64,000 bases of DNA from Escherichia phage vB_EcoM_KAW3E185, in the sequence record MK373782.1; one strand, 5' to 3'. The position numbers and the translations under genes are program-made. This document shows, piece after piece, positions 11,552-12,007 of the stretch. Position 1 is the first letter of the stretch. Each line of letters opens with the position of its first letter. A model generated the notes under the pieces. That model ran no database searches, was not told where the DNA came from, and saw only the letters and a program-made list of their open reading frames with translations.

Positions 11552-12007
11552 TTATTTTAGATCTTCGGCCCAATCTAGTTTTAAGGGTTCTTTGTATTCA
11601 CGGTCGAGAATAACCGGAATAGCTACATCACCACTGAATGATAGTTGGCCAACGTTATATGATAACGTTATATGTGGAGTGTAGTCGTCGAAATCATGAG
11701 TAGCACCTAAAGCTCGTGCGTACTGATGACGACATCTAAGATATTCGGAATCAAGAACTAAAACCAGTACAGTGCCGTCGTCAGTTTTCCATACCTCAAA
11801 GTGTCCTGATTCGGCAATAGAATAACTACCACTAGACGTAGTATATGGTATGTTTACACGTGAATAACAAATTGTTGAATGAAGCTTTTCACGTGGTACT
11901 GGATTAGGAATTCTTAATTTACGCTGGAGGTCTTCCAGCGCATCAAGTGTTAATTCCGAAAATTTAGCTGCGACGTAGAGGCCTTGTGAAAAGTCCTCAA
12001 ATTTCAT
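11552..12007 (-). CDS. 57B: gp57B, 2H-phosphoesterase (Acb1-like anti-CBASS nuclease)
   Basis: 151 aa; two H-x-T/S motifs (HSTICYS, HITLSY); position upstream of 57A as in T4. Confidence 0.75.

Follow-up and report, generated by a model that had tools for sequence, protein, structure and literature searches.

Gene 57B of Escherichia phage vB_EcoM_KAW3E185 very likely encodes a conserved Acb1-type anti-CBASS phosphodiesterase at the edge of a hyperplastic region

The best described counterpart of the gene considered here is gene 57B of phage T4, the product of which was identified as Acb1, a protein with a 2H phosphoesterase fold, in a study that also compiled 273 Acb1 proteins from phages (Hobbs et al. 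2022, PMC9117128). T4 Acb1 cleaves 3'3'-cGAMP, cUA, cAAA and cAAG, not cGG, in a metal-independent manner and protects against CBASS in vivo; cAAG was degraded by T-even-infected lysates, and cAAG after Acb1 treatment was assayed with the CBASS effector Cap4 (PMC9117128). The catalytic tetrad is of the HxT/HxT type (H44, T46, H113 and T115) and the H44A/H113A mutant is catalytically dead, while base stacking involves Y12, W74, F107 and W147, the adenine N6 is contacted by E141, and residues 145-152 form a lid closing over the ligand (PMC9117128). This lid is needed for catalysis (preprint 10.1101/2025.08.21.671373). On a CBASS-expressing host T4 57B is conditionally essential, whereas on laboratory E. 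coli K-12 it is non-essential (preprint 10.1101/2025.11.20.689424), and its expression is mainly middle/late (preprint 10.64898/2026.03.30.715471). T4 Acb1 is among the most promiscuous of the viral 2H phosphodiesterases and also cleaves 2'3'-c-di-AMP, which triggers the Panoptes guard system (preprint 10.1101/2025.08.21.671373). Two further systems have solved structures, Acb1 of Erwinia phage FBB1 (PDB 7T26, apo; 7T27, with 3'3'-cGAMP) and 2H PDE-9 (PDB 9Q2G/9Q2Y, "Anti-CBASS protein Acb1"), a viral enzyme of structural group 3 that cleaves 3'3'-cGAMP but is poor on 2'3'-c-di-AMP and so acts without triggering Panoptes (10.1101/2025.08.21.671373).

We analysed a stretch of 64,000 nucleotides from Escherichia phage vB_EcoM_KAW3E185 (MK373782.1), referred to as the window, which derives from a T-even coliphage with DNA ~97% identical to that of APCEc01, JK45, vB_EcoM_G53 and relatives, the records of which are filed under Mosigvirus or Tequatrovirus. 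The gene order is as in T4, comprising 4, 2, 3, 1 (dNMP kinase), 57A, 57B, ipI, trna.4/.3/.2-like ORFs, tRNA-Met and tRNA-Arg. The window starts in the e/nudE region, downstream of denV, and the vs region, including acb2 (vs.4), falls outside it. The reading frame in the 57B position and the segments of its product that are compared with T4 Acb1 are as follows:

11552..12007, minus strand: acb1 (gene 57B) coding sequence from the ORF list, 151 aa plus stop, with an ATG start (coordinates include the stop)
11861..11881, minus strand: first catalytic motif, HSTICYS, residues 43-49 (H43 and T45, equivalent to T4 H44 and T46), read from the sequence and an 11-sequence alignment
11657..11674, minus strand: second catalytic motif, HITLSY, residues 112-117 (H112 and T114, equivalent to T4 H113 and T115), read from the sequence and the alignment
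11555..11578, minus strand: C-terminal lid, LDWAEDLK, residues 144-151, including the stacking residue W146 (T4 W147), from the T4 alignment

We consider it highly likely, from homology, that this reading frame is the orthologue of T4 gene 57B (Acb1) and would encode a 2H phosphodiesterase that is small, independent of metal and produced in the course of infection. The protein matches the Pfam family PF23474 ("Anti-CBASS protein Acb1") over its full length (profile positions 1-144 of 144) with 197 bits against a cut-off of 27 (E=1.6e-58), its top match among solved structures is FBB1 Acb1 (7T26/7T27; E=5.7e-59, residues 9-148, 64% identity), and it aligns to T4 gp57B (NP_049750.1) without gaps at 85% identity (E=2e-102). 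These three matches agree with the original prediction, which had proposed a 57B/Acb1 homologue with both catalytic H-x-T/S motifs, to be checked by alignment to T4 Acb1; in that alignment both catalytic histidines are retained. The NCBIfam collection has no model for Acb1 or for the IPI and Ip9-like proteins encoded next to it. A single-sequence AlphaFold2 model of the 151-aa protein (mean pLDDT 34, pTM 0.28) was unusable for fold comparison, and a 2H phosphoesterase fold is instead predicted from the 64% identity to 7T26. More generally, homology to the T4 and FBB1 enzymes points to the fold, the catalysis and the in vivo role that the window protein would have.

The motif pair contributes little by itself to this assignment. 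Two of the five histidines of the window protein occur in an H-x-[ST] context, both as H-x-T, and in 100,000 shuffles of the same protein at least two H-x-[ST] occurrences arose in 15% and at least two H-x-T in 2.9%. The pair alone is weak evidence because of this 15% chance expectation, and it was discarded as stand-alone evidence for Acb1; the weight of the assignment comes from homology. Since end-to-end homology places the motifs at the positions of H44/T46 and H113/T115 of T4, they correspond to the catalytic residues of that enzyme. All nine of the named functional residues of T4 Acb1 (Y12, H44, T46, W74, F107, H113, T115, E141 and W147) recur unchanged in the window protein with numbering shifted by -1, giving Y11, W73, F106 and W146 as the stacking residues and E140 as the adenine contact. 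The 23 substitutions relative to T4 (15% of residues) are mostly conservative (I/V, D/E, Y/F, L/I) and none falls on a named functional residue. Within the lid there is a single conservative D to E change (T4 LDWADDLK), and the N-terminus is one residue shorter than in T4; no functional difference is indicated by any of these changes. In an alignment of 11 homologues (28-99% identity) with sequences from T4, JK45, APCEc01, FBB1, Yersinia phiR1-RT, Acinetobacter Acj9, Aeromonas 50AhydR13PP, Vibrio D484, Cronobacter leE and Vibrio phiKT1024, the invariant positions included G9, Y11, H43, T45, H112, T114, E137 and E140. The FBB1 enzyme shares the HxT/HxT tetrad and, by homology, the 2H architecture, but its first motif reads HTT rather than HST, and it carries F and Y, still aromatic, at the positions of W73 and F106 of the window and their T4 equivalents.

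By analogy with T4 Acb1, the enzyme would capture 3'-5'-linked cyclic di- or trinucleotides containing at least one adenosine (3'3'-cGAMP, cUA, cAAA, cAAG), and also 2'3'-c-di-AMP, in a U-shaped pocket where Y11, W73, F106 and W146 would stack the bases and E140 would read the adenine N6, with the C-terminal lid shutting over the bound cyclic nucleotide. Acid-base catalysis by the H43/T45 and H112/T114 tetrad would then promote attack of the adenosine 2'-OH on the 3'-5' bond, yielding a 2',3'-cyclic phosphate intermediate and subsequently a linear 3'-phosphate. Destruction of the signal would leave CBASS effectors (Cap4, Cap5, CapV and similar) inactive and would allow the phage to escape abortive infection. 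Conditional essentiality, promiscuity and 2'3'-c-di-AMP cleavage probably carry over from T4 to the window protein at 85% identity. The annotation consequently predicts resistance of the phage to CBASS signalling with adenosine-containing cyclic di- or trinucleotides, continued exposure to systems based on cGG, cUU or 3'2'-cGAMP, and possible triggering of Panoptes-type guards that sense the loss of 2'3'-c-di-AMP; it is useful for picking T-even phages in therapy and raises no new question.

An alternative that accepts an active Acb1-family enzyme is that the 23 substitutions have shifted its substrate range, such that its main target in vivo is unlike that of T4, for instance by sparing 2'3'-c-di-AMP and so avoiding Panoptes, or by favouring the cyclic oligoadenylates of type III CRISPR systems. 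The 15% of residues unlike T4 leave some room for such a shift, and T4 Acb1 and PDE-9 do differ in preference, which is set by the core rather than by the lid (10.1101/2025.08.21.671373). We nevertheless regard it as improbable, given that the known ligand-contacting residues are all as in T4 and none of the substitutions affects a named functional residue. PDE-9 is moreover a remote relative and not an 85%-identical orthologue; it shares the superfamily and the two catalytic histidines with the window protein, but the sequence match is marginal (E=0.007) and its lid is N-terminal instead of C-terminal.

Less probable still, to the point of being very unlikely, is that the gene encodes a LigT-like 2'-5' RNA ligase or 2',3'-cyclic phosphodiesterase whose substrates are RNA ends, for instance during tRNA repair. 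The name itself has some currency, as PHROG 755 carries the label "RNA ligase" and RefSeq records have copied it; the LigT family shares the 2H phosphoesterase fold and two H-x-T/S motifs, and tRNA-Met and tRNA-Arg lie ~2.2 kb downstream of acb1. The only other Pfam match of the protein is indeed to 2_5_RNA_ligase2 (PF13563), with partial coverage and 16.5 bits, below the threshold of 27 (E=0.009), as against the 197 bits obtained for Acb1. Retention of all the Acb1-specific ligand-stacking residues and of the lid also argues against a role on RNA ends, as does the cleavage of cyclic oligonucleotides and the protection from CBASS by the T4 protein (PMC9117128; 10.1101/2025.11.20.689424). Under the Acb1 assignment, the name "RNA ligase" is an outdated transfer from PHROG 755 and not based on data, in view of PF23474 and the characterisation published in 2022. 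Orthologues in public records are often labelled "RNA ligase" or "hypothetical protein", and one is labelled "cyclic phosphodiesterase". In the RefSeq entries of T4 (L001 6001-6456), JK45 (L002 5953-6411) and APCEc01 (L003 11930-12385), the 57B/Acb1 orthologue is still called "RNA ligase". The practical outcome is a corrected annotation, in which the gene is named acb1 (anti-CBASS 2H phosphodiesterase); its importance is otherwise small.

The gene is under strong purifying selection, with a dN/dS (Nei-Gojobori) of 0.05 relative to T4, a comparison in which dN is 0.13 and synonymous divergence is saturated (dS ~2.5), and of 0.06-0.14 relative to near-identical relatives. Using tblastn, the window protein was found in 1,469 phage records, including 59 at 99% identity or above and 93 more at 95-99% (~150 at 95% or above), the closest match (99.3%) differing by one substitution. 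A decaying or inactive copy that keeps its motifs by descent only has nothing in its favour beyond the dispensability of 57B on laboratory E. coli K-12, and its probability is close to nil considering the intact frame of the same length as in relatives, the low dN/dS despite saturated synonymous divergence, the invariant functional residues and the occurrence of the gene in so many phages. The window protein is almost certainly active. As a well-conserved orthologue of an enzyme whose function and genomic position have both been characterised, the gene is ordinary and already known.

The surroundings of acb1 closely resemble those in T4, where 57B is likewise situated between 57A and ipI with a late-promoter motif upstream in gene 1. 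The flanking genes and candidate expression signals are listed here, along with two short opposite-strand ORFs:

12242..12976: gene 1 (dNMP kinase)
12007..12237, minus strand: gene 57A (tail fibre chaperone), Pfam PF17594 GP57, E=5.9e-23
12592..12599, minus strand: candidate late promoter with the T4 consensus, inside gene 1, from a pattern search
11509..11537, minus strand: early-promoter-like site, TTTACA N17 TACTAT, with an embedded inverted repeat, in the acb1-ipI gap, from a promoter scan and the sequence
11506..11613 and 11592..11684, plus strand: short ORFs of 30-35 aa overlapping acb1

The gap between gene 1 and 57A is only four bases, and the stop of 57A overlaps the start of acb1 by one base (TAATG), as against an overlap of 4 nt in T4; because of this stop/start overlap the two genes are probably translationally coupled. 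Co-transcription of acb1 with 57A is also probable. The motif TATAAATA is found 355 nt upstream of the 57A ATG in the window, and the same motif 356 nt upstream in T4. We regard it as a candidate late promoter of 57A and acb1, in line with the middle/late timing that has been reported for T4 57B. Directly after the acb1 stop, the site in the acb1-ipI gap contains the inverted repeat AGGATGAT...ATCATCCT. This site resembles the T-even PeSL consensus TTTACW N17 TAYWAT (PMC4122927), and could both terminate transcription of 57A-acb1 and start early transcription of ipI. The two plus-strand ORFs were set aside on account of their small size and their antisense position to acb1, on which purifying selection is strong.

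Downstream of acb1 the region includes genes for internal proteins, and injected proteins that inhibit type IV restriction are known from the ipI locus, one of them being Bas37_0260, which acts against McrBC (preprint 10.1101/2025.11.20.689424). Hyperplastic regions of T4-type genomes have been explained by a model in which PeSL elements serve as a "mobile regulatory cassette" (PMC2839356; PMC4122927). The relevant features of the window are:

11187..11474, minus strand: ipI homologue (internal protein I), 86% identity to T4 IPI, Pfam PF11634
11138..11183, minus strand: PeSL-like repeat, upstream copy (direct repeat D1), TTTACA N17 TATAGT plus stem-loop, 10/12 matches in the promoter scan
10858..11121, minus strand: Ip9-like internal-protein gene, 87 aa from MKTFNEFISE, phrog_7673 "internal head protein"
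10810..10855, minus strand: PeSL-like repeat, downstream copy (direct repeat D1), from alignment

Internal-protein genes thus do adjoin acb1, as had been noted before, in the form of the ipI homologue and a second ORF bearing a capsid-targeting sequence (CTS). Residues 20-95 of the ipI product cover PF11634 (IPI_T4, "Nuclease inhibitor from bacteriophage T4") completely (profile positions 1-76 of 76, E=2.6e-49), and its N-terminus (MKTYKEF...LTE, followed by A) aligns with that of T4 IPI, comprising the capsid-targeting sequence and a putative gp21-type cleavage site, with A20, directly behind LTE, as the predicted first residue of mature IPI*. According to Bair et al. 2007, as cited in PMC4122927, IPI* acts against GmrSD. 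The Ip9-like protein, 71-72% identical to the products of genes annotated as Ip9 in RB32 and IME08, consists of the capsid-targeting peptide common to T-even internal proteins and an unrelated body, and has only the N-terminal MKTxxEF in common with IPI and Bas37_0260. Its candidacy as a homologue of the McrBC inhibitor Bas37_0260 was rejected, as only the first 17 residues, corresponding to the capsid-targeting peptide, align. A sequence search of the PDB gave no significant match for the Ip9-like protein (best E=0.07), and it has no Pfam match. The body (residues 16-87) is 58% identical to the 72-aa protein JSSK01_64 of the Kagunavirus JSSK01 (L013 2507-2722), a siphovirus of 44.5 kb. JSSK01_64 starts exactly at the end point of the T-even capsid-targeting peptide and is the first gene of a small-ORF operon beside the primase/helicase block. 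The correspondence suggests capture of a small early protein and its joining to a CTS, which would allow it to be injected.

The Ip9-like gene is bracketed by a 46-nt direct repeat, the two copies of which are 85% identical at a spacing of 328 nt; in each copy a stem-loop (ATAGGACTA...TAGTCCTAT) overlaps a site resembling an early promoter (TTTACA N17 TATAGT). In APCEc01 the same slot holds exactly one repeat copy and no gene, and in JK45 it is occupied by a different CTS-bearing ORF. The slot clearly illustrates how a cassette can be inserted or deleted, and replaced, by way of PeSL elements.

The original prediction also suggested a possible anti-defence island in this neighbourhood, an idea for which support is no more than loose. 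A genuine IPI neighbour with an Ip9-like gene next to it speaks for the term, whereas the downstream content varies by lineage. The linkage conserved through the Straboviridae is 1-57A-57B, an order seen in T4, JK45, APCEc01, phiR1-RT, Acj9, Aeromonas 50AhydR13PP, Vibrio D484 and Cronobacter leE; each lineage examined has different DNA downstream of 57B, and the Acinetobacter, Aeromonas, Vibrio and Cronobacter phage records annotate no internal-protein gene beside 57B. Because 1-57A-57B is conserved and the sequence downstream is variable, a more apt description of acb1 is that of a conserved gene bordering on a hyperplastic region where cassettes are exchanged, at the point where a conserved block gives way to DNA encoding many injected counter-defence proteins. 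Its adjacency to internal-protein genes is not new, since T4 has the same arrangement. A broader reading, which we entertain tentatively and judge to be possible though on balance unlikely, is that the 57B-ipI-Ip9-like stretch may be a functioning counter-defence locus where injected inhibitors are exchanged by way of PeSL cassettes; the Ip9-like product would then be an uncharacterised injected inhibitor of some host defence, in which a T-even capsid-targeting peptide has been joined to an early protein of small size, the peptide-free form of which occurs in Kagunavirus siphophages. Acb1 itself would stay ordinary.

Four further ORFs (68, 126, 96 and 171 aa) occupy 9432..10809 on the minus strand, between the internal-protein genes and tRNA-Met/Arg (9196-9352). 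They match PHROGs of unknown function, with no Pfam match, and are located at the positions of T4 trna.4, trna.3 and trna.2 with one extra ORF (171 aa), in the same hyperplastic region.
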